Shown here one piece after another: positions 2,650 to 52,228 of a DNA stretch of 64,000 nt; position 1 is the stretch's first letter, and every line of letters starts with the position of its first letter. A program made the position numbers and the translations under genes. Source of the DNA: Candidatus Omnitrophota bacterium. GTDB lineage: Bacteria > Omnitrophota > Gorgyraeia > JAFGHF01. The notes beneath the pieces were generated by a model. It was not told the DNA's origin, ran no database searches, and was given only the letters and a program-made list of their open reading frames with translations. The stretch is from contig CP070837.1 in assembly GCA_020341815.1 (NCBI GenBank), forward strand, positions 892,064-956,063, in the 5' to 3' direction.

Positions 2650-3010
2650 AGGGCCTCATTTAATTGAGTTTACTTGAACTTACTTTTGGAGGGAAACTTA
2701 CTTCCAATTAACCTTGCTTACTGCTAAAGACCCACTTAATCAGGCTTAACCAAAATTACCGCAAAAGTGTAACTTTTCTCAAGTTAACCTGGCTTACTTT
2801 TGCAAGCCAACTTAACTAAATTTCGTTACACTTACTCAAAGGACCCTATTTTACTTAGTGTTACTTTTTAGGGCTGACTTACTTATCCTTACTCAATGAG
2901 CCACGAATTACCTGTATTTACTTTTTTGAGGAAAGTTACCTGAAGTTACTCGGTGGGTTTGTTTTTACCGGAAGTTACTTGATGGGCCTATTGTTACCTA
3001 GAGTTACCTC
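2650..3010. repeat. Degenerate tandem array of about 25 TTAC(T/C)T / GTTAC(C/T) units (iteron-like) in a convergent intergenic region
   Basis: Direct reading shows GAGTTTACTT, GAACTTACTTTT, GAAACTTACTTCC, AAGTTACCTG, AAGTTACTCGG, AAGTTACTTGATG, GTTACCTAGAGTTACCTC and similar units. No ORF of 60 aa or more on either strand. Confidence 0.65.
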
Positions 3011-3014
3011 TCCC

Positions 3015-3473
3015 CTATCGCAGCGAAAATATCCTTACTCTTTCTGAACCCATATTATCTGAGTAATCGAAATCGCTGACCCAGAGGCGCACCTCTTTTT
3101 CTTGTTTCAAAGTAAAGTCTAAAGTTGCACCCACTTGACCTTCTTTTAAGGCCTGTAAAACCTCGTTTTCGGCATCGGCCTGGGAAGCTACTTTTGGGCT
3201 TGGTTCTACATATAACGTGCCTAAATTAGGCTGGTCTTGTCCGCCCAGGCAATCCGTACCTACGCATAGGCTGTAAAGCCAGCTGTAATTGGGGTGAATG
3301 GGGAAAAATAGCGCCACCGCTCCCCCGGCTGCCTCAGCGCGGTAATTGCCTTTGGGTAAGGTTATGGTTATGCCTTCGGCTTTCTCTGCCGGAACGGTAA
3401 TTGTCTTATCATACGCATAAGCAGCCGTTGAAAGCACAAGATATAACAACAGCGCAAAACTCAAAGTTTTCAT
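3015..3473 (-). CDS. Small secreted hypothetical protein
   Basis: Signal peptide MKTLSFALLLYLVLSTAAYA. RBS AAGGAG. No recognisable family. Confidence 0.6.
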   Translation of the reverse strand: MKTLSFALLLYLVLSTAAYAYDKTITVPAEKAEGITITLPKGNYRAEAAGGAVALFFPIHPNYSWLYSLCVGTDCLGGQDQPNLGTLYVEPSPKVASQADAENEVLQALKEGQVGATLDFTLKQEKEVRLWVSDFDYSDNMGSERVRIFSLR

Positions 3474-3490: not shown

Positions 3491-3580
3491 CTCACTGAAA
3501 TCACTGAGATTATTACACTGAAGCCACTGAGACTTTATTCAGTGTTCTCAGTGTTGCTATTCAGTGTTCTCAGTGTCTCT
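3491..3580. repeat. CACTGA-rich hairpin element, copy 1 (second copy at 29101-29188)
   Basis: About 85% identical to the copy at 29101-29188. It contains direct repeats CACTGAGAACACTGAATA and their inverted complements, and overlaps the last 13 codons of the giant gene. Confidence 0.7.
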
Positions 3581-6500
3581 TGATTGATATAGTAAGTCTT
3601 ATCCTCTGTGGTTATTCTCCATACCGGGTAAAATGGTGAAGTGGTAAGCTCAGGTGAATAGACAAGCTCAGCCTTAATTTCAGCGGGCTCTTCTTCACTC
3701 TGGGCCAATACCTTCTCTATGGCTTCCTCTTTGCTAATCTGGATAAACCTTACCGGCTCATCCACCCAGGAGGCCTGTTTAAAGTAGCCCTCTTCCCTAT
3801 CAATGATTATGGCAGCATAGCTTAAGAACTGCCCCTGGAAGAAGTTGTCAAAAGGAACGAGGTAATAGTCCTTGCCTGCCTTATCCAGTCTTTGGACAGG
3901 GATAAAGCTTCTGGCAATAGAGCCCTGGATGCTTTGGGTGAACTTCTCGTCCGTAAGAAGCGAAGGGTCGATTATCTCTTTCCAGTTTATCCGGGAAGTC
4001 GCTTCGTTTTCCGGTTTGAAGATATTTAAGAGGTCTTCCTCTATGGTGTAAGAGATTAGCTCCTGCTCTTCATTAAGATTAACCACCAAGGCCCTGTCTA
4101 AAAGGTGCTTCTTGACAGGGTCGGTACTTTCTCCTGAGAGATAATCAGCTATCCTGACCAGTTCCCGGGTAGATTCATTTATTCGAGGTTCGGCTAAAGA
4201 GACCTCAGCATCACTTGGTTCAGAGGGCGGCTCAGCTACCTGAAGGTATTTGCCCTTATAATCATCTTCGGCCGTAAGAGGCAGTAGCATTGTAGCCTGG
4301 CATTCGCCAGCTGTGAGATAGTTATCCTGGCCTATGCCTTGGCCTTGCGGGTCAGTCAGCCAGAGGCCGTAGACCGTAAAGTTGCTAAGGTCTGAGAGCC
4401 GATGGTAACGGCTATGCGGCTCAAAGGGATAGGGGTTCATATCACAGGCTGCACCGTTTATCACCAGCCAGTGCCCGTATGTTCCGTAGGCAGGCACTGC
4501 AGCTGGCGTGTAGGGCTCTGCTACTAGGTCGGTTTCATCCTGGTAATTGTGCCAATCTTCCTTTGTGACAGGATAGGCTATCCAATGAGTGATGTCTCTT
4601 AGGTATTCCTTGAATTGGTCGGGTTCATACTCCTCAATGCCAAAGTTGTATCCATAGTTAGAACGACCTCCAGCTGGAGCATCACCTTCACCCAAGTTGT
4701 CATAATAATCAAAATGCCCCAAGGCATAGTCTATAGCATGAGGGTCCATTTCATCAAGGGAGGCTTTGTTGTAGGGATGGCCGTATTCATAGATCTCAAG
4801 CTGTGAGGGGGTATCATCTTCAGGACGCATCAGGTCTATAATCATCTGAGCGCTGGCTGCGCCTGATGAGGCAAAGTTATAAGGCTCAGGGAGTAACTCT
4901 TCGGCGTAATACTCAGGCAAGTCTATATGCAGAACCCAGCCTTTAAAGACTGAGATAGAGTCTTCGCCTTCGTTACCTGCTGCGTCTGTAGCAATAACCT
5001 TGACGATATTCCTCTGTCCTTCCCCTTCTATAGTTACGCCGGATGCAGAGAATGTCCCGTCACCCATATTGTCTGCCGATGAGTAATTTGTGTTAGCTCC
5101 TGTTACCTCTATTTCAACAGTTGCAGTATCATCATCTATCGTGCCTGATATGTCTATCAAGACATCATTAACTCCGGAATTATTAGCCGGATTGGTGATG
5201 GTAACCTGAGGTGCGGTCCTGTCAATGGTAAAGGAGACGCTGCCTGAGGAGCTATTGCCGGCCTCATCAGTAGCAGTTAAGGTAATAGTATAGTCTCCTT
5301 CTTCGGTATATGTATAAGTAGGAGGAAGATCATTATCACTGGTAACAACAATCTTATCCCCACTTGAACGGTCATCCTCTACTGTATAAGTTAAGGTAAC
5401 ATCCTGATTGGTCGGAGTAGATACAGGGTCAATACTGATTGTGGGTGGGGCGGTATCCGGTGAGTTCTCTAACTCCACTGTTATGCTCTGCCATGGAGAT
5501 TGATTTCCCGCTGCATCTATTGCCCGGGCTTCAAATGTTAGCGTTGAGCCGGGAGCTAAGGTGTCTGTCTGGACCAGCCCTGCCACAAAAGACCAATTGC
5601 TTATATCTTCTATGGTGACCGACACTCCTGCGTCTTCTCCATTTATCTTCGTCTCTATGGATTCCAATCCTGAATCATCTGTGGCAGTGCCGGAAAAGCT
5701 TAATGAAGTTCCTATTTGAATCTTTGCTCCGTCTTCCGGATAAGTTATAGCAACAACCGGAGGTGCGATATCTACATTGTTTACGGTTATAACGATTGTT
5801 TCCTGATTACTCCTAAGAAGTTCTTTATCGTATGCCCAGCAGGTCAATCGATAGTCTCCTCCTGCCTGGTCATATGTTGGTGTCCAACGAACAACACCTG
5901 CTTCAAACACGGCTCCTATTGGTACATCTACCCCTGCATTTTCCCATCCGTACCATACTTCCTCTCCATCGGGATCGCTGGCGGAAGGCGTAATAACTAA
6001 CTCCTGATTTTCATCTATTGTGCGATTTCCTATAGGATTTAAGATAGGCGCACGATTGACATCATTTACGGTAATCGTTACTTCTTGAGAATCAATAAAA
6101 CTGCCGTCCGAGACTGTAACTGTTACTTTATGCACTCCGGCATCATCGAATGTTGTGACATAGGTTTGCTCAATCATCCATCCAGAATAGCTATAGGTTA
6201 AAATGTCTTCTTCATCGGGGTCGGTAGCAGAAGGCGTAATAGTTATAGTCTGACCCTCAGTTACGGTTATATCGGCTATTTCATTCAGAACCGGCGGATG
6301 ATTATCGGTGAAGATAGCCTTATAATGATATCCCATATCTACCTGGTTTATATCAGGCTGAGCATTTGTACGGGTAGTATAGTTATAATTAAAGCCAAGA
6401 TTAATTGCTGCATCACTTCCTGCATCTACACAGGGTGAATATTTGTCAAGATAATATTGTCCCTGCGGTCCCTCCACAAAAAGCGGGTACATAAAGATGT

Positions 6501-8835
6501 TGCCGTCAGTATAATTACAATTACCATAATTGGCCTCTGTATTATTACAAATATTATTATAAGAAAGAGTGGGGTGGGTATTGGGAGTATAGGCATATAT
6601 CCCCCCGTTATTATTGGTTATGATGTTATTTCTGATGATCGGGCTGAAAGAAGGAGCATCGGCGATACAAACTATTCCTCCTTTACCGCCATTGCCAACA
6701 ATGGTATTATTTTCTATAATCAACTGTCCATCGGCATCAAGACCTCGACAGTAAATTCCTGCATAAGTATTATCTATTAGCAAATTATTGAATAAATTTC
6801 CGTAGGCGTTAATACTGTCAAAACCGCCTTTTTTATTTTCGGAAATTTGACAATCTCTTATCTCAAAATTAATTGAAGGCTTTCCAAAAATATAGATTCC
6901 ATACTCACTATTCTCTCTTACAATACAGTTTTCTATTGTAATTAAACAATTTGAACTACCTTCCACTCTAATGCCATGCCATGCATTTTTGATTATCTTA
7001 CAATCCTTAATAAGCATTGTAGAAGTAAGCTGTTCGTAGACATAGACACCGGACCAGGCACTCTCAGTAATGGTAACACCATCGATCACTACATCGCAGG
7101 CATTATAGAATCCTATTCCACCTTCGATAATGGTTTCGCAGAGCTCGATATTGCGTGTCCAATTAGTTGACTCATATCCGCCTAACAAAATAAATTCCTG
7201 CGGAAAGTGCGGGCTTGTTACATATGTGCCTTGAGCAACACAAATCTTTGTCCCTTTGGTGGTACGCTTCCACAAATCCTTTAAATCTTTGTATGGATTA
7301 TCCTTGCTGCCGTCTGCTTCTACTGAGGCGCTATTGGCATCCACATAAATAATAGGGATTGCCTGTTCCATATCGCTATATGTGCTGTCAATCTCAGATG
7401 TATAATAGGTATGCAGGCGATAGTAATAGACAATGCCTCCTGATTCAGCCACATCATTATCGGTAAACGTAGTAATTGCAGCATCGGATATATCGCTGCC
7501 AAGCTGAACCCAGGAAGCAGGATTTTTCGGAGTTGCAGTGCGATAAATACGGTAGAAACTAAAATCGGGATTGGTTTCCTCATCCCAGTTTAATTCTACG
7601 GAAGCTAAATCCTCTGACCATTTAACTCTTGGCTCATCTAATAACTCTTGGTTGACATTAAAATCATATCCACCATTGTAGGCAGCAATGGAATAAAAAC
7701 TTGTATCGATAAACCTTAACCACCAATCTGCATTAACACCATCCTCAGTCCAGTCTATCCAGCTACCAGTTATACCATTACCATCAGGAACAGTTTGCCA
7801 GAGACCACTTTCTTTAGCCCAAGTAAGGGCAGAATTAAGATATGACTCTTGGCCTATATCAAGCCAACAGAGTGATGCCTGAAAGGAAAACCCGGGAGAC
7901 TTCCTATTTTCCTCTGCGCCGTCATTCCAGACCACAGCCCCATCTTCTTTTTGCAGGGTATTATGTATCCACTCCCCTACCTCTTCTGAATTTACGCCCC
8001 TGCAAGGCAAATCCAGCATCTGAGGAGCATAATTAATCCATTCATGCAATCCGGGGTCTTTGGGTATTCCGTTTTCATCAATCTTTCCGTGCCAGACACC
8101 AAAATCAGAGCTCTCAGGATCATCTATATATAAGTACTCATCAATACCTTCAATTATGCGCTTTGCAGCATAATCGCAGACTTCAGAGAAGTCTGTATCA
8201 CCTTTAATCATTGCCCACTTCTGCGCTGCCTTTAATGCCTGGTAGGCATAGGCATTATCAGAAGCCCAGCGCCAGAAGCGATAAATGCCTGAGGCATCCT
8301 TGCCGCCCCCTAACAATCCGTCATCGTTACCGCCTTTATTTTCGAGTTCCTGGCAAGATATAAGATAGCCCGCACCTTTTTTCATAGAATCATATCTATC
8401 TTCCCTGTAACCCAATTTATAAAAGGCAATCATTACTTCTGCTGTCTGAGTGGGTGACTTAGCCCAATCCACGACTTCAGAGTAGCTATATTGATCGCAC
8501 CAGGCCCCATCGTCTTCTTGTTGAATGCTTATCAAATAATCGGCAGCTAATTGGGCCCTTTCTAAATAGGAAGTATCTTCTAATATATCTGAAGCCATAA
8601 TAAGTCCTAAAATCGCCATGGCATTTTCACGCGGAACTATCCAGGTTGGGCTTCCATAGACGTTATTTATACACCCGTATGCAGAGTCTGCCTGCTCCAT
8701 AAATTGACATTTAAGGATATAATCGGCCTCTGTTTTGACCAACTCTGAATCGGCAAAAGCAATACCGGAGGTGCTTGCCAAGAATAAAACTAAGCAACTC
8801 AACATTATACCTTTTAATAGATTCTTAAGTCTCAT
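3535..8835 (-). CDS. Giant secreted multidomain surface protein (about 1,767 aa): signal peptide, prenyltransferase-like alpha/alpha-toroid repeats, FN3, right-handed parallel beta-helix (PbH1 repeats), cadherin-like/Ig-like repeats and a C-terminal C39-like (Cys->Ser) domain
   Basis: Start placed at the Met of MRLKNLLKG...AFA (8835), which forms an ATGA overlap with the upstream stop. QxxDGxW repeats. FN3 motif (SVELNWDEE...FYRIYR). Many beta-helix turns (NCLITIENCIVRENSEYGIYI, IRDCQISENKKGG, IENNTIVGNGGKGGIV). DPD-rich Ig-like repeats (ITITPSATDPDEEDILTYSY). The C-terminal SSGAASAQMII...GHWLVINGA resembles a peptidase_C39_2 core with Ser in place of Cys. Confidence 0.8.
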   Translation of the reverse strand: MRLKNLLKGIMLSCLVLFLASTSGIAFADSELVKTEADYILKCQFMEQADSAYGCINNVYGSPTWIVPRENAMAILGLIMASDILEDTSYLERAQLAADYLISIQQEDDGAWCDQYSYSEVVDWAKSPTQTAEVMIAFYKLGYREDRYDSMKKGAGYLISCQELENKGGNDDGLLGGGKDASGIYRFWRWASDNAYAYQALKAAQKWAMIKGDTDFSEVCDYAAKRIIEGIDEYLYIDDPESSDFGVWHGKIDENGIPKDPGLHEWINYAPQMLDLPCRGVNSEEVGEWIHNTLQKEDGAVVWNDGAEENRKSPGFSFQASLCWLDIGQESYLNSALTWAKESGLWQTVPDGNGITGSWIDWTEDGVNADWWLRFIDTSFYSIAAYNGGYDFNVNQELLDEPRVKWSEDLASVELNWDEETNPDFSFYRIYRTATPKNPASWVQLGSDISDAAITTFTDNDVAESGGIVYYYRLHTYYTSEIDSTYSDMEQAIPIIYVDANSASVEADGSKDNPYKDLKDLWKRTTKGTKICVAQGTYVTSPHFPQEFILLGGYESTNWTRNIELCETIIEGGIGFYNACDVVIDGVTITESAWSGVYVYEQLTSTMLIKDCKIIKNAWHGIRVEGSSNCLITIENCIVRENSEYGIYIFGKPSINFEIRDCQISENKKGGFDSINAYGNLFNNLLIDNTYAGIYCRGLDADGQLIIENNTIVGNGGKGGIVCIADAPSFSPIIRNNIITNNNGGIYAYTPNTHPTLSYNNICNNTEANYGNCNYTDGNIFMYPLFVEGPQGQYYLDKYSPCVDAGSDAAINLGFNYNYTTRTNAQPDINQVDMGYHYKAIFTDNHPPVLNEIADITVTEGQTITITPSATDPDEEDILTYSYSGWMIEQTYVTTFDDAGVHKVTVTVSDGSFIDSQEVTITVNDVNRAPILNPIGNRTIDENQELVITPSASDPDGEEVWYGWENAGVDVPIGAVFEAGVVRWTPTYDQAGGDYRLTCWAYDKELLRSNQETIVITVNNVDIAPPVVAITYPEDGAKIQIGTSLSFSGTATDDSGLESIETKINGEDAGVSVTIEDISNWSFVAGLVQTDTLAPGSTLTFEARAIDAAGNQSPWQSITVELENSPDTAPPTISIDPVSTPTNQDVTLTYTVEDDRSSGDKIVVTSDNDLPPTYTYTEEGDYTITLTATDEAGNSSSGSVSFTIDRTAPQVTITNPANNSGVNDVLIDISGTIDDDTATVEIEVTGANTNYSSADNMGDGTFSASGVTIEGEGQRNIVKVIATDAAGNEGEDSISVFKGWVLHIDLPEYYAEELLPEPYNFASSGAASAQMIIDLMRPEDDTPSQLEIYEYGHPYNKASLDEMDPHAIDYALGHFDYYDNLGEGDAPAGGRSNYGYNFGIEEYEPDQFKEYLRDITHWIAYPVTKEDWHNYQDETDLVAEPYTPAAVPAYGTYGHWLVINGAACDMNPYPFEPHSRYHRLSDLSNFTVYGLWLTDPQGQGIGQDNYLTAGECQATMLLPLTAEDDYKGKYLQVAEPPSEPSDAEVSLAEPRINESTRELVRIADYLSGESTDPVKKHLLDRALVVNLNEEQELISYTIEEDLLNIFKPENEATSRINWKEIIDPSLLTDEKFTQSIQGSIARSFIPVQRLDKAGKDYYLVPFDNFFQGQFLSYAAIIIDREEGYFKQASWVDEPVRFIQISKEEAIEKVLAQSEEEPAEIKAELVYSPELTTSPFYPVWRITTEDKTYYINQETLRTLNSNTENTE

Positions 8836-9506
8836 TTTTCCTCTCCCATTCCCATTGAAAATGCTTCTTGTGCAATTTTTAACCATCTTTTATCCTTGCT
8901 AATAACGTTAAAATTCTTTAATTCAATATCTGTTGTAATCTCCTCGGCCTCTATAATTTCATTTGGGGTCCTAATGATACAATTGCCTTCGGCCAGAAGG
9001 GTTTTATCTTGATTATTCCATTTTAGTTCATTGCAAGTTAACACTCTTTTATCTTCCGTGGTCAGGGTTGCATTTCCGTAAAGCTCTACACCCTTGCTTA
9101 AGGAATTGACTACAGCTGTGCGGGCGCACGCTGTGGAAACCGCAAGGTTATTTTTATAAAAGGAGATTTTAGGCTTTTCTACTTCCATTACCTTGCCTAC
9201 ATTTATGCGAAAGATCCCGAATTTTGGGCTTTTTGTCTGTAAGCGCTCACCGGATAAGATATAGCTCTTCTCTGCCCTGCTGCTTATTTTTGCATATTCG
9301 GTAAAGCTGAAATTTCCGACATCAAGATTCTCTGCACCGGATGAGGCCCTTGAAGACTGGATGGATTCTAACCCTCTGCGGATAATTACTTCTTTGGACT
9401 TGCTTCTATTTATAATACCAATGCATAAAAGCACAATACCCAAAACAGCAATGGGTAGCACAAATATAGTTATTAGCATTTTCTTGATGTTTTCAGGATT
9501 TGTCAT
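8832..9506 (-). CDS. Membrane-anchored LptC/OstA-like protein, translationally coupled to the giant gene
   Basis: N-terminal TM helix, then a beta-rich domain with LYGNATL / AEGNCII motifs reminiscent of the LptA/LptC OstA fold. Stop TGA overlaps the downstream ATG. Confidence 0.4.
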   Translation of the reverse strand: MTNPENIKKMLITIFVLPIAVLGIVLLCIGIINRSKSKEVIIRRGLESIQSSRASSGAENLDVGNFSFTEYAKISSRAEKSYILSGERLQTKSPKFGIFRINVGKVMEVEKPKISFYKNNLAVSTACARTAVVNSLSKGVELYGNATLTTEDKRVLTCNELKWNNQDKTLLAEGNCIIRTPNEIIEAEEITTDIELKNFNVISKDKRWLKIAQEAFSMGMGEEK

Positions 9507-9531
9507 ATCTTTGTTTGGATTGGCATAGATT

Positions 9532-9582
9532 AATAAAAAGCCACTAAGGGCTCGCCTTTTTCCTCCGCCTAGTGGTTTTTTA
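9532..9582 (-). terminator. Terminator-like hairpin inside the 5' leader of the LptC-like/giant-protein operon (candidate attenuator)
   Basis: AAAAAGCCACTAaGGGC...GCCtAGTGGTTTTTT. There is a U-run on the minus-sense side, and the hairpin sits 20-70 nt upstream of the start codon and downstream of the predicted promoter. Confidence 0.35.
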
Positions 9583-9651
9583 TAAAAGTATGAATAAAGA
9601 CTATCTTGTAGGTCAAGACTTATGCAACTACTTTATAAAGTAATAAAGTAT

Positions 9652-9680
9652 AATATAGCAAAATGCAGGACATCTGTCAA
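9652..9680 (-). promoter_or_regulatory. Sigma70-like promoter (TTGACA, 17 nt spacer, TATATT) for the LptC-like/giant-protein operon
   Basis: Minus-strand TTGACA at 9680-9675 and TATATT at 9657-9652, with exactly 17 nt between them. Confidence 0.5.
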
Positions 9681-9775
9681 GAAAAATTATGAAACAATTT
9701 TTCGCAGACCTCGTGGCGAAGCTTTACGGGTCAAGGATTTTTTTTGACCGTAGAAATGTCCATCGAAAGGCAGTT

Positions 9776-10138
9776 TTAGATGCTTTTTTGGCGGTAATAG
9801 GAATAGACCCGGCCTACATCAAGGGGGTCAATGGTAATGAATTTTATACCAGTTTCATGCAAATTAATGCTTTGACCGGCTCTTTCGATTATTCCATAAG
9901 GCTTGGTCCAGACAACCTCACCCACGCCTCTAATGGCCCTCTGGGGATTGTCCGGAACGGTTATCTCCACTTCCAGTATTGTGCCTGCCTGGAGCTTCTC
10001 GGTTAAACAAACCCCCATTCCCCCGCCTCCGATATTCTGGGGCAGGGTTTCGATCTTTTCTCTATCCCGGCCCTGCACAGCATAGCGCACATTGGCAATA
10101 CCACCAAGCCGATGAAAGACTCTTCTATCTTTAGACAT
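9776..10138 (-). CDS. PilZ-domain protein (c-di-GMP receptor)
   Basis: RRVFHR (RxxxR) and NIGGGGMGV (D/NxSxGG-type) motifs. Confidence 0.8.
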   Translation of the reverse strand: MSKDRRVFHRLGGIANVRYAVQGRDREKIETLPQNIGGGGMGVCLTEKLQAGTILEVEITVPDNPQRAIRGVGEVVWTKPYGIIERAGQSINLHETGIKFITIDPLDVGRVYSYYRQKSI

Positions 10139-10150
10139 AATAACACCTCA

Positions 10151-10495
10151 TTATCTGGTATGGTAAAACTTTACCAGATGGCTGCCTTCAAAAAAAAGAT
10201 GCTGGGTTTCTGCAAGATAATCTACATTTATAGGCAAATTGGGGTAACGACCGTGATAAATCCATTCTTCCTGCACCATGCCCTGGGCATCGCTCTTGAC
10301 TACATTAACTATATCGGGGTCGCCCCACAAGGAGCGCACCTTCTCCTTGGTCATTCCTGTACGTAACGGACTTTCTCCTAATGGCTGGCGCATTATATCT
10401 TCGGGCGTAGGCGGGCTAATTTCGCTGCAGCCGGCAGAAAACAGCGCAAGAGCTAATCCTAAAAAGATTACGAGTTTATTCAGACTAAACCCCAT
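10151..10495 (-). CDS. bamE: BamE/SmpA-OmlA-like outer-membrane lipoprotein
   Basis: Lipobox FSAGC, then a GMTKEKVRSLWGDP motif typical of BamE. Confidence 0.55.
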   Translation of the reverse strand: MGFSLNKLVIFLGLALALFSAGCSEISPPTPEDIMRQPLGESPLRTGMTKEKVRSLWGDPDIVNVVKSDAQGMVQEEWIYHGRYPNLPINVDYLAETQHLFFEGSHLVKFYHTR

Positions 10496-10988
10496 TACCG
10501 CGCTCCCTCCTCTGGTTAATAAAACTGCCTAAGACAGCCTCATCTTGCGGCTCTACTTTAGTAAACTTAATTCCTGCGTTAAATAATTTTTTATCATTTC
10601 CTTCTGCACCAGGATTACCTGAGGCCTCTTTTATCCAGACTATCTCTCCTTGAGCAATGATAGTCTTCTCATTCTGCGGCAGGTTAAACTGAAGTTCCAG
10701 AAGCGTTCCGGGAAACAGCTTCTCAGTCAACCCTATACCTATGCCCCCTAAGCTAATATCCCGGCTTACAGCATCTCGCTTTTTAGCCGCATCATTGGAT
10801 AGAACTTCATAATGAACTTCAATCTCAGCGCTTACACGGGGAGTCTTCCTTCTCTCGGCTCCTTTATCCCAGACACCGTTCAGCGTTGCGCTCTTTTTAG
10901 CCAGCTTTCTTTTTCTGCGGTCGTCCTGATAAACTGCAATTAATATAAGGATTAAAAATACAATTAACCCTACCTGAACTATAATCAT
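10485..10988 (-). CDS. Membrane-anchored PilZ-domain protein
   Basis: N-terminal TM helix. RRKTPR and DISLGGIGIG motifs. Confidence 0.75.
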   Translation of the reverse strand: MIIVQVGLIVFLILILIAVYQDDRRKRKLAKKSATLNGVWDKGAERRKTPRVSAEIEVHYEVLSNDAAKKRDAVSRDISLGGIGIGLTEKLFPGTLLELQFNLPQNEKTIIAQGEIVWIKEASGNPGAEGNDKKLFNAGIKFTKVEPQDEAVLGSFINQRRERGNGV

Positions 10989-11448: not shown

Positions 11449-11802
11449 TTAAATGTTTAAGTTTTTTAACTGGCTGTACATAAGATTGCATAAATATTGA
11501 AGAAAATCCTGCTTGGCTTCTTCGGAGATATGAATAAATTCTAAGCCCACGACACAACTATCCTTTCCCTCTCCGCACCAAACAACCTTGGCCTTAATTG
11601 CAACCGCATCAGATCTTGTGGGTATCTTAACATTAATATTTAAGAGGCTGCCTTTAGGTATCTCCTCTTTAACGGGGAAACTTACACCATCCGGGCTGAT
11701 ATCTTTAGTAGTGCTCTTCTGAGGCAAGGCCTCTTTCCCCTCAACAGTATAACTGACTTCTAAAGGAGTGGTCATGCGCACATATTTTCTTCTTTCTCGC
11801 AT
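11449..11802 (-). CDS. PilZ-domain protein
   Basis: RRKYVR and DISPDGVSF motifs. Confidence 0.75.
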   Translation of the reverse strand: MRERRKYVRMTTPLEVSYTVEGKEALPQKSTTKDISPDGVSFPVKEEIPKGSLLNINVKIPTRSDAVAIKAKVVWCGEGKDSCVVGLEFIHISEEAKQDFLQYLCNLMYSQLKNLNI

Positions 11803-13701: not shown

Positions 13702-14097
13702 TTAGCATTCCTGCGCTTCCTTATTATTAAAATTAGGGGATTGAAGTATGCATTGCTTAATCTTTTCTTTGTCTTTTTTGGATAAATCGGTAAAGAAAAT
13801 GGCTATATTCTGATAGGCGGTGTCTGCCTCTTTCATAATTACGGGTTCGGACCTTACCACCACTCCGTTGCATTTAACTTTTTCGGTGTTAAGCTTATTT
13901 CTGCGATAGATGGGAAGAAGCAAAATAAGGCTTATTTTGGACATCAGGGGCAGGGGTTTGTCTATGCGGCAATAGACTCCCGAACAGCTTATATTTCTGG
14001 TTTCGGTAATTACGTCTAAGCCTTTTTTGGAAATCTTAAGCGGCAGGATAGTTTGTGTACGCTGATATTTCCTTCTCTCCAGTACTGCTCTAGACAT
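13702..14097 (-). CDS. PilZ-domain protein
   Basis: RRKYQR and NISCSGVYC motifs. Confidence 0.7.
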   Translation of the reverse strand: MSRAVLERRKYQRTQTILPLKISKKGLDVITETRNISCSGVYCRIDKPLPLMSKISLILLLPIYRRNKLNTEKVKCNGVVVRSEPVIMKEADTAYQNIAIFFTDLSKKDKEKIKQCILQSPNFNNKEAQEC

Positions 14098-15845: not shown

Positions 15846-15997
15846 AGTCAATAATGTATGATTCCCACGAGCCGATAAAGCTAGAGGCTTTATCTCACGC
15901 ACCTCCCATGCTCCGGCAGCCCAACTACCATCTCGGAGAATGCCTGTATGTTTATTTCGACAACCTTAAAGGGAGATGTTTTTTTGGCTCCCTTTTC

Positions 15998-16092
15998 TAC
16001 ACGGCGTCCTTTTCATCTACGGCATTTCTTCCGATTTAGGCTTGCGGCTTTGCGTCCCAGCCTTTCGACTGGTTTGCCTTTATCGGCTCTAT
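15998..16092 (-). ncRNA. c-di-GMP-I (GEMM) riboswitch aptamer, copy 1
   Basis: Minus-sense AAGGCAAACCAGUCGAAAGGCUGGGACGCAAAGCCGCAAGCCUAAAUCGG... This matches the GGCAAACC-P2(GNRA GAAA)-GGGACGCAAAGCC-GCCUAAA core of V. cholerae Vc2. Confidence 0.7.
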
Positions 16093-29085: not shown

Positions 29086-29100
29086 CTTACACCTCCTTTT

Positions 29101-29188
29101 ACCACTGAAATCACTGAAATTGTTACACTGAAACCACTGAAGTTTTATTCAGTGTTCTCAGTATTATTTACTCAGTGCTCTCAGTGTT
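29101..29188. repeat. CACTGA-rich hairpin element, copy 2
   Basis: About 85% identical to 3491-3580. It supplies the stop codon and last codons of nadD and precedes the RBS of the zinc-ribbon ORF. Confidence 0.7.
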
Positions 29189-29786
29189 TCTTTATTTTAA
29201 CATGATATAGTCTTTTTTTCAATATGTATTTTCTAACTCGTTCGGGAACAAGATAGCGGATAGATTCACCGCGCTTCAGGCGCCTGCGGATATCGCTGGA
29301 TGAAATATCCAGCGACACAGTCGGTATCCTTATTGCCTGCATCTTCGCAAGGGGCTTCTTAAACGGAAAACCGGGACGCTCGGCAATCGCAAATTTGCAG
29401 ATTTTACTGAGTTTATCTACATCCTTCCACCGGGAAAACTCTTTCAAGAAATCCGAGCCCACAATAAAATATAGATTAGCCTCAGGAAAAATAGATTTGA
29501 GCTCTCTCACCGTCTGAAGCGAATAAGATATGCCACCTCGAGCAAGCTCTAAGCTGCAGGCCTCAAAATAGGGATTGGACTTTAAGGCCTGGGCAACCAT
29601 ATAATATCTCTTTTTCGCCAACTCAAGCCTCTTTTGCCTTCTTTTATGCGGACTGATATTGGTGGGAATAAATATCACCTTATCTAAGCGCAGATGCTCC
29701 CTGGCCTGCTCTGCCAGGACCAAATGGCCCATATGTATAGGATTAAAGGTCCCTCCCAATATGCCAATTTTCCTGGACTTAGACAT
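29181..29786 (-). CDS. nadD: Nicotinate-nucleotide adenylyltransferase
   Basis: GILGGTFNPIHMGHL motif. Confidence 0.9.
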   Translation of the reverse strand: MSKSRKIGILGGTFNPIHMGHLVLAEQAREHLRLDKVIFIPTNISPHKRRQKRLELAKKRYYMVAQALKSNPYFEACSLELARGGISYSLQTVRELKSIFPEANLYFIVGSDFLKEFSRWKDVDKLSKICKFAIAERPGFPFKKPLAKMQAIRIPTVSLDISSSDIRRRLKRGESIRYLVPERVRKYILKKRLYHVKIKKH

Positions 29787-52117: not shown

Positions 52118-52200
52118 CGTCTGGCAACCCAGCCATCCCTAACTCTAAGGACCTGTTGGCTTTGCGCCCCCCGACTTTCGCCGGGGTTTGCCTTTTTCAA
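52118..52200 (-). ncRNA. c-di-GMP-I (GEMM) riboswitch aptamer, copy 2
   Basis: Minus-sense GGCAAACC-CCGGC-GAAA-GUCGGGG-GGCGCAAAGCC-...-GGGUUGCC. P1 closing GGCAA/UUGCC and P2 with GNRA loop match GEMM-I. Confidence 0.7.
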
Positions 52201-52228
52201 ACGTATTTTGTTACTTTGTACAACCAGA

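Follow-up and report, generated by a model that had tools for sequence, protein, structure and literature searches.

An LptC-fold protein gene coupled to the gene of a mosaic beta-helix protein in a proposed envelope operon of an Omnitrophota bacterium

A 64,000-nucleotide stretch of DNA (the window) from a 1.55-Mb contig, CP070837.1, of a Candidatus Omnitrophota metagenome-assembled genome (MAG) holds what is proposed to be a three-gene envelope operon, in which the first gene encodes a small protein with the LptC fold and the second a large exported protein with a right-handed beta-helix. LptC is known almost solely as a subunit of the lipopolysaccharide (LPS) exporter. The LptC-like gene stands immediately 5' of a homologous gene for an FN3 and beta-helix protein in eight of the nine loci compared, and given this recurrence, a hitherto undescribed module of the cell envelope seems more likely than a neighbourhood arisen by chance. 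An earlier note on this DNA, made from the sequence of the window, had described the two genes as a pair, and the linkage holds among their orthologs. The reading put forward here, with some reserve, is that the LptC-fold protein is an inner-membrane tether or partner for a beta-helix protein that binds or processes an envelope glycan, both being encoded in the three-gene operon.

All features of the unit lie on the minus strand. The first gene (8832-9506) codes for a bitopic inner-membrane protein of 224 residues, and the second (3535-8835) for a Sec-exported mosaic protein of 1,766 residues starting with MRLKN, in agreement with the earlier estimate of about 1,767 for a large secreted protein. 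The ATG of the large open reading frame (ORF; 8835-8833) overlaps the TGA of the 224-residue ORF (8834-8832), giving the ATGA start/stop overlap at 8835-8832 that had been claimed, and a Shine-Dalgarno-like run, GGGAGAGG, is found just 5' of the start. A start at 8886, taken from a mechanical ORF list, was rejected in favour of 8835 on the grounds of this Shine-Dalgarno run, the orthologous ATGA starts and the NCBI record, which has the same length of 1,766 residues. NCBI names the large protein a right-handed parallel beta-helix repeat protein. The third gene (3015-3473) follows the large one past an 87-nucleotide palindromic repeat and codes for a secreted protein of 152 residues with a signal peptide.

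The 224-residue protein has the LptC fold. It scores 23.0 bits against the Pfam LptC model (PF06835, cut-off 21) and 39.1 bits against the NCBIfam equivalog model TIGR04409 (cut-off 38), so that both hidden Markov model (HMM) cut-offs are passed narrowly, by a margin of 1-2 bits; among its relatives P0003 passes TIGR04409 with 42.5 bits, while P0002 stays under the cut-off with 35.2. The structure model, which was built from 89 relatives and has a predicted local distance difference test score (pLDDT) of 87.9, consists of an N-terminal transmembrane helix (residues ~4-32), a beta-jellyroll of the OstA type (62-202) and a short C-terminal helix (207-219), and its top structural matches are full-length LptC chains (e.g. 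PDB 6mjp_C and 6mit_C). The LptC-like assignment made in the earlier note is thus backed by the model, by the structural matches and by both HMMs, and LptC is also the name that NCBI (PGAP) gives to the protein. A search of PDB sequences with the family profile gave nothing useful. The family is small, with 201 clusters at E <= 1e-3 in a profile search of 1.84 billion representatives, and its named members are all Omnitrophota. No second LptC-like paralog was found in the window or in any of the fetched loci.

The part of the large protein that is linked to LptC-like genes is its FN3 and beta-helix core (residues ~394-860), for which BLAST gives identities of 32-45% with the partners encoded in the other loci. 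Six of the seven loci that were reached through the LptC-like protein alone have a partner directly downstream (L001, L002, L010, L012, L014 and L015), the partner in L010 being only an N-terminal fragment. L006 was reached through the partner, and there a 215-residue LptC-like gene lies upstream and overlaps the partner start. The ATGA overlap of the window is also found in L001, L002 and L014, while the two genes overlap by 13 nucleotides in L006 and are separated by gaps of 13-33 nucleotides in L015 and L012. Loci whose LptC-like proteins are more alike also have more similar partner cores (correlation of the identities between pairs of loci, r = 0.88; 4 of 720 in an exact Mantel test). This co-divergence fits joint inheritance of the two genes, but would equally result from the phylogeny shared by the organisms. 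More loci were sought with LptC-like alignments in GTDB genomes and JGI metagenomes, and no confirmed locus was found there.

Export and secretion genes are found next to the pair in several of these loci. In L014 the pair is preceded by genes for an EpsL-like outer-membrane protein or porin, an EpsE/Wza-type exporter and a Wzc-type tyrosine autokinase (TIGR01007, 203.9 bits, cut-off 108), and the gene for the same Wzc-type kinase overlaps the LptC-like gene in L001. A weak EpsD-like peptidyl-prolyl isomerase is encoded upstream of the pair in L006. The pair in L015 comes after a complete type II secretion system (T2SS) operon (GspF, G, K, L/M-like, C and D) and before a gene for a GH5 mannosidase, and in L012 it is preceded by a gene for a protein of >3,186 residues. 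The upstream genes of the window encode four PilZ proteins, a BamE-like lipoprotein and housekeeping proteins.

In the proposed arrangement, translational coupling would lead to the production of the two proteins in a fixed ratio. The LptC-fold protein would act as a dedicated inner-membrane partner or tether of the anchorless beta-helix protein and may also provide a lipid-binding hand-off point. The complex would bind or process an envelope glycan, such as an exopolysaccharide or a cell-wall polymer, either in the periplasm or on the way to the surface, by analogy with the AlgK/AlgG periplasmic scaffold of alginate export. It is further hypothesized, with more doubt, that the Omnitrophota LptC-fold family was recruited away from, or beyond, LPS transport and forms a two-component envelope module with the FN3 and beta-helix protein, in which the jellyroll would tether a glycan-active scaffold beside Wza/Wzc or T2SS machines, or would hand over a lipid-linked glycan.

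Several observations weigh against the tether reading. The linkage was found in a sample of only nine loci, of which L001 and L014 are close relatives (their partners are 80% identical) and not fully independent, and in L013 the LptC-like gene stands alone, between rpmH-rnpA and dnaA. Neither Wza/Wzc nor lpt genes were found near the pair in the window, which was searched with HMMs at 9.7-27.5 and 41.5-52.1 kb and inspected by eye in the rest. The invariant residues of the beta-helix are mainly structural (the Asn ladder, Gly and Ile), and no catalytic motif is recognizable among them. Moreover, 58 of the 89 scanned relatives match the equivalog model TIGR04409, and the protein could simply be the housekeeping LptC of the phylum.

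As an ordinary LptC of the LptB2FGC exporter, the protein would share its operon with a beta-helix gene that acts on LPS or O-antigen, or that sits there by operon history. This is the main alternative, though we consider it rather unlikely. It would account for the passing of both LptC cut-offs, for the PGAP name and the full-length LptC chains among the structural matches, and for the housekeeping neighbourhood of the solitary L013 copy, and a small family with named members in the Omnitrophota only would fit a phylum-specific ortholog set. However, no lptA/lptB, lptF/G, kdsC/D or other kds genes lie beside the LptC-like gene in the flanks of any of the nine loci, and the HMM scores are only 1-2 bits over their cut-offs. 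The tight coupling to one protein family, which is kept over LptC-like identities of 24-55%, is not known for lptC elsewhere, and several of the neighbourhoods are polysaccharide or protein secretion systems.

The large protein begins with a signal peptide (residues 1-28, ending in AFA before an Asp, as read from the sequence). The following predicted alpha/alpha-repeat domain of about 365 residues (~30-395; 7651-8748) is a promiscuous module similar to squalene cyclases and prenyltransferases. A profile of 63 of its sequences matches squalene-hopene cyclase repeats with an E of 1.8e-6 through several QxxDGxW units, and at the sequence level the family profile thereby backs the prenyltransferase-like repeats that had been noticed before. 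The core that co-occurs with LptC-like genes is encoded at 6316-7641 and comprises an FN3-like sandwich (~399-495) and the right-handed beta-helix (~496-840). The FN3 region is plausible by its sequence pattern; its profile gives weak, non-significant Ig/FN3 matches in the PDB (E 0.013-0.7), and it has no FN3 match in Pfam at E <= 10.

The beta-helix matches Beta_helix (PF13229; 110.6 bits, cut-off 25.9, E 7e-32) and NosD (PF05048; 42.1 bits, cut-off 23.6, E 9e-11), both over residues 583-770, and it has the conserved NNxI/N ladder that also marks a right-handed beta-helix. A PbH1 beta-helix of at least ten turns had been announced; the helix is there, but the count comes to about eight clear repeats plus caps. 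Residues 845-1298 (4942-6303) form an array of Ig-like domains, identified by HMM as PKD_4/Big_9 (845-922), He_PIG (929-1019), Big_7 (1026-1083), Big_13/PKD (1138-1205) and Glucodextran_B (1209-1298), which puts the several Ig/cadherin-like modules of the earlier description on a secure footing. No Pfam family matches residues 1-395, 396-520 or 1296-1530 at E <= 10, and searches of PDB sequences with the N-terminal and C-terminal regions gave nothing useful.

The domain after the Ig-like array (residues ~1299-1540; 4216-4941) has a papain-like fold of the C39 type. Ser1324 is placed at the N-terminus of the core helix, which begins at residue 29 of the model and carries the nucleophile of papain-fold enzymes at this position. 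The catalytic Cys is absent: a Ser takes its place in 34 of 46 homologs, a Thr in 10 and an Arg in 1, while the residue corresponding to His1455 is a His in 39 of the 46 and Asp1495 is invariant. At the sequence level no family was recognized in the C-terminal 471 residues. No C39 family figures in the list of the 25 Pfam families that occur most often in the 46 members (E <= 1), the domain of the large protein itself has no C39 match at E <= 10, and a PDB search with the family profile retrieves no C39 chain. A C39_2 core with Ser in place of the nucleophile had been proposed, of which the fold and the position of the Ser stand, whereas, judged by the catalytic Cys and by HMM, the domain does not belong to the C39 family. 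Like other papain-fold proteins in which this Cys is replaced, the domain is probably a binding domain or an atypical enzyme. The protein ends with a helical linker and PepSY-like alpha/beta domains (residues ~1541-1752; 3580-4215), which do not reach the cut-off of the PepSY HMM (PF03413). Overall, the earlier domain list holds, including the C39-like core with Ser for Cys.

The domain make-up also bears on another explanation, in which the large protein is a surface adhesin or a cell-wall-degrading weapon that is secreted by a T2SS and serves in attachment to a host or prey, in the manner of the giant Omnitrophota proteins, with the LptC-like protein as a cargo-specific export adaptor or pilot and not as a lasting anchor. 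An Ig/PKD/cadherin-like array combined with a CASH-type beta-helix is typical of adhesins and glycan-active surface proteins. The positions of the pair right after the full T2SS operon and before the mannosidase gene in L015, and after the very large gene in L012, are in line with this idea, as is the presence in the window of a type IV pilus/T2SS-like cluster at a distance of about 30 kb. Nevertheless, it is unlikely. T2SS genes adjoin the pair in none of the window, L001, L002, L006 and L014, the protein lacks an adhesin-type anchor, and no PEP-CTERM or other C-terminal sorting signal or anchor was seen on the beta-helix partner proteins. In addition, the OstA/LptC fold has no known role in the recognition of T2SS cargo. 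The adhesin-like surface protein of the earlier note finds no support in a sorting signal or anchor, and the role of the LptC-like protein as its anchor is likewise a proposal.

The partner proteins of the other loci share an N-terminal helical domain of their own, of ~370 residues with the motif GKxELF...HPQANFW, for which no relatives were detected and a search of PDB sequences gave nothing useful. The window protein does not have this domain. It is a derived mosaic, in which the usual N-terminal helical domain has been replaced by the squalene-cyclase-like alpha/alpha module and a second conserved unit, made of the Cys-less C39-fold domain, the PepSY-like domains and the 152-residue partner, has been fused at the 3' end. 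The N-terminal module is common to >70 proteins with identities of 42-68% and with varied partner domains, such as FG-GAP, LamG, sialidase-like and dockerin domains, and some of these proteins are archaeal. The C-terminal module is present in 58 proteins, most of which have ~660-690 residues and consist of Ig domains followed by this module; one of them, a paralog with 61% identity, is encoded in the same genome. No LptC-like gene neighbours the genes for proteins that have only the N- or C-terminal modules (L003-L005, and L009 with a fusion of the two). Direct fusions of the N- and C-terminal modules, of 780-890 residues, occur in Omnitrophota (P0072, P0076, P0080, P0083, P0092, P0097, P0105 and P0113), and because they exist the two modules of the window protein may cooperate without the beta-helix.

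The 152-residue protein is 46-50% identical to the products of 151- and 158-residue genes that directly follow, and overlap, genes for Ig and C-terminal-module proteins in L003 and L005. Since its homologs trail such genes in two loci, it is a conserved partner of the C39-fold/PepSY module; HMM scans gave no family match for it. This anatomy, a C-terminal domain with an enzyme fold and closely behind it a small gene for a protein with a signal peptide, is also that of effector and immunity pairs, and the papain-fold domain might be a polymorphic-toxin-like effector, the 152-residue protein its periplasmic immunity protein and the rest a delivery scaffold. This is very improbable: the nucleophile Cys is replaced by Ser or Thr throughout the family, the PepSY-like domains come after the papain-fold domain in the same protein, and the module is not polymorphic, its architecture being the same in 45 homologs with identities of 31-68%.

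The L003 and L005 genes belong to a recurrent four-gene cassette of Omnitrophota (L003 6959-10495 and L005 3602-7132), which encodes secreted proteins of ~177 and 139-162 residues, a ~680-residue Ig and C39-fold/PepSY protein and the overlapping partner of ~151-158 residues. Peptidase S8 or C14 genes and an RHS/Tc-toxin-like gene are found near it.

Upstream of the LptC-like gene, the sigma-70-like promoter TTGACA-17-TATATT that had been predicted is present at 9680-9652, with a TG before the -10 box and a score of 11/12; it would drive the whole unit. The leader contains a hairpin (9535-9582) composed of an A-tract, a stem of 8+2 bp, a 14-nucleotide loop and U5, which ends 28 nucleotides before the ATG; the hairpin proper is located at 9575-9541 and the U-run at 9539-9535. 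Because only ~25 nucleotides separate the U-run and the ATG, a transcript that reaches the LptC-like gene must read through the hairpin, which may damp this read-through. The hairpin folds with a free energy (dG) of -15.7 kcal/mol and z of -2.15, while the z of the whole leader fold, -1.4, is non-significant. All three loci with long leaders of 136-158 nucleotides (the window, L006 and L013) have a hairpin and U-run ending 24-32 nucleotides before the ATG, as compared to none of the four loci with short leaders, and in L013 there is no co-directional upstream gene for the hairpin to terminate.

A hairpin with a U-run had been taken earlier as a sign of attenuation. The hairpin and U-run are present, but attenuation finds no support in an Rfam family, in alternative pairing in the minimum-free-energy fold of the leader or in sequence conservation, and the architecture alone recurs, in three loci. 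A known riboswitch was rejected, as Rfam gave no match in the leader, and so was a conserved leader sequence or aptamer, as the leaders do not align. The hairpin may nevertheless serve in attenuation, or in the formation of a promoter-proximal small RNA of ~100-125 nucleotides, which is a fair hypothesis. A seven-codon mini-ORF, ATGCCAATCCAAACAAAGATATGA (9504-9527, minus strand), lies between the U-run and the LptC-like gene with its TGA overlapping the LptC-like ATG; L006 and L013 have no conserved counterpart of it.

Both the adjacency of the two genes and the promoter and hairpin could in principle be products of chance. In a 9-kb stretch, 25 promoter-like sites were found against 19.3 expected from shuffles and 12 terminator-like sites against 8.6, which, like the z of the hairpin when taken alone, is within chance, and the z of the leader fold points the same way. 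However, near-consensus promoters recur 5' of the LptC-like gene in L006, L010, L012, L014 and L015, and conservation of the pairing with overlapping reading frames contradicts chance for the genes themselves, so that this explanation is scarcely credible. In L014 (4341-4380) the TTG called as the start of the LptC-like gene directly adjoins a perfect 12/12 promoter, TTGACA-18-TATAAT, and therefore either the mRNA is leaderless from an ATG 9 nucleotides downstream or the start is miscalled.

The junction between the large gene and the 152-residue gene is occupied by the palindromic CACTGA element (3493-3579), which contains four direct and four inverted copies of this motif. As had been suggested, the extreme C-terminus of the large protein comes from it: the final 14 codons (ETLRTLNSNTENTE) and the stop lie within the element, which ends at the Shine-Dalgarno of the next gene. 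Homologs have nothing that corresponds to these residues, and the model gives them low confidence. The RNA of the element is predicted to form a strong hairpin with a dG of -41 kcal/mol and z of -4.7. A second copy (29100-29190), 85% identical, likewise provides the ORF before it with its stop and runs up to the Shine-Dalgarno of the following gene. This element of ~90 nucleotides resembles a repetitive extragenic palindromic (REP)-like intercistronic element. Repeats of another kind are found downstream of the 152-residue gene at 2660-3010, where iteron-like direct repeats GTAAC-N5-GGTAA, several of them 29 nucleotides apart, and 41-nucleotide TTAC-rich repeats lie in a stretch of lower G+C (0.37), adjoined on the plus strand by a LAGLIDADG/helix-turn-helix (HTH) ORF (911-2209) and a small HTH ORF (2234-2449). 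In L013 the rpmH/rnpA-dnaA intergenic region (1912-2285) with the stand-alone LptC-like gene has a duplicated GACAAATAAAATAAAT motif, which is possibly related to a replication origin.

The four PilZ proteins are single-domain proteins encoded on the minus strand (9776-10138, 10485-10988, 11449-11802 and 13702-14097) in the 4.5 kb that immediately precede the LptC-like operon, suggesting dense cyclic di-GMP (c-di-GMP) effector signalling in this neighbourhood. Two c-di-GMP-I riboswitches (RF01051) are found on the same strand. That at 15912-16088 (69.8 bits) precedes a gene for a CobO-like adenosyltransferase and spans 177 nucleotides for a model of 87 positions. The other, at 52120-52202 (59.7 bits), precedes a 114-residue ORF, a HAMP/GAF/GGDEF protein gene and the type IV pilus/T2SS-like cluster, which extends over 41.5-52.1 kb and encodes MshEN/T2SSE ATPases, T2SSF, pilins and PilM.

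If the partnership of the LptC-fold and beta-helix proteins is real, their conserved coupling represents a new use of the Lpt bridge fold and gives a handle on the envelope biology of an uncultured, possibly predatory or parasitic phylum. Should the small protein be a housekeeping LptC instead, the locus is an annotation warning, as 'LptC' calls at 1-2 bits over cut-off are thinly based in this phylum. The locus also defines a family of Cys-less C39-fold domains that is widespread in Omnitrophota and has a small partner of its own, and a protein that unites a pair of mutually independent two-gene modules with a promiscuous domain at its N-terminus makes modular evolution visible. No paper linking Lpt to Omnitrophota or to beta-helix partners was found in the literature.

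The model of the LptC-like protein matches full-length LptC chains of LptB2FGC. Unlike the gene for that subunit, the gene described here is never beside lptA, lptB or kds genes in the loci examined and is translationally coupled to the gene of an FN3 and beta-helix protein, and its product has an extra C-terminal helix (207-219). An Lpt-fold machine with a cargo other than LPS is known from Borrelia, where Lpt homologs serve surface lipoproteins (bioRxiv 10.1101/2022.12.21.521298). The cargo considered here, by contrast, has no lipobox and is not a lipoprotein, and only an LptC-like component is linked to it.

The beta-helix, of the CASH/NosD type, may be compared to those of the AlgK/AlgG scaffold of alginate export and of NosD in NosDFY, as it would likewise be periplasmic and work with a membrane export machine. 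The orthologous partners, in which a helical N-terminal domain precedes the beta-helix, look like a fusion of AlgK-like and AlgG-like parts, and in L001 and L014 they have Wza/Wzc neighbours. The similarity to AlgG is, however, non-significant (E 0.13), with no epimerase or lyase motif found, and the partner here is an LptC-fold protein rather than an ABC (ATP-binding cassette) permease or a TPR lipoprotein.

Replacement of the catalytic Cys, here by Ser or Thr, with the His largely kept, is shared with the C39-like domain of HlyB and with Plasmodium SERA5, which has a Ser papain fold. The domain described here, by contrast, is not fused to an ABC transporter but is C-terminal in a secreted protein, with PepSY-like domains and a dedicated 152-residue partner after it, and it has no sequence-level Pfam C39 match.

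Giant genes of Omnitrophota have been reported to have T2SS-like loci and C39 domains nearby, with no mention of Lpt or of a conserved LptC-like upstream gene (West-Roberts et al., bioRxiv 10.1101/2023.11.21.568195). The large protein is similar to these giants in being a modular secreted protein of the same phylum with carbohydrate- and adhesion-related domains and a C39-type domain, and its relatives in L015 and L012 have T2SS or very large genes as neighbours, although at 1,766 residues it is far smaller. While the folds are all of known kinds, the operon of an LptC-fold and a beta-helix protein, and the Cys-less C39-fold module with its 152-residue partner, appear to be undescribed.

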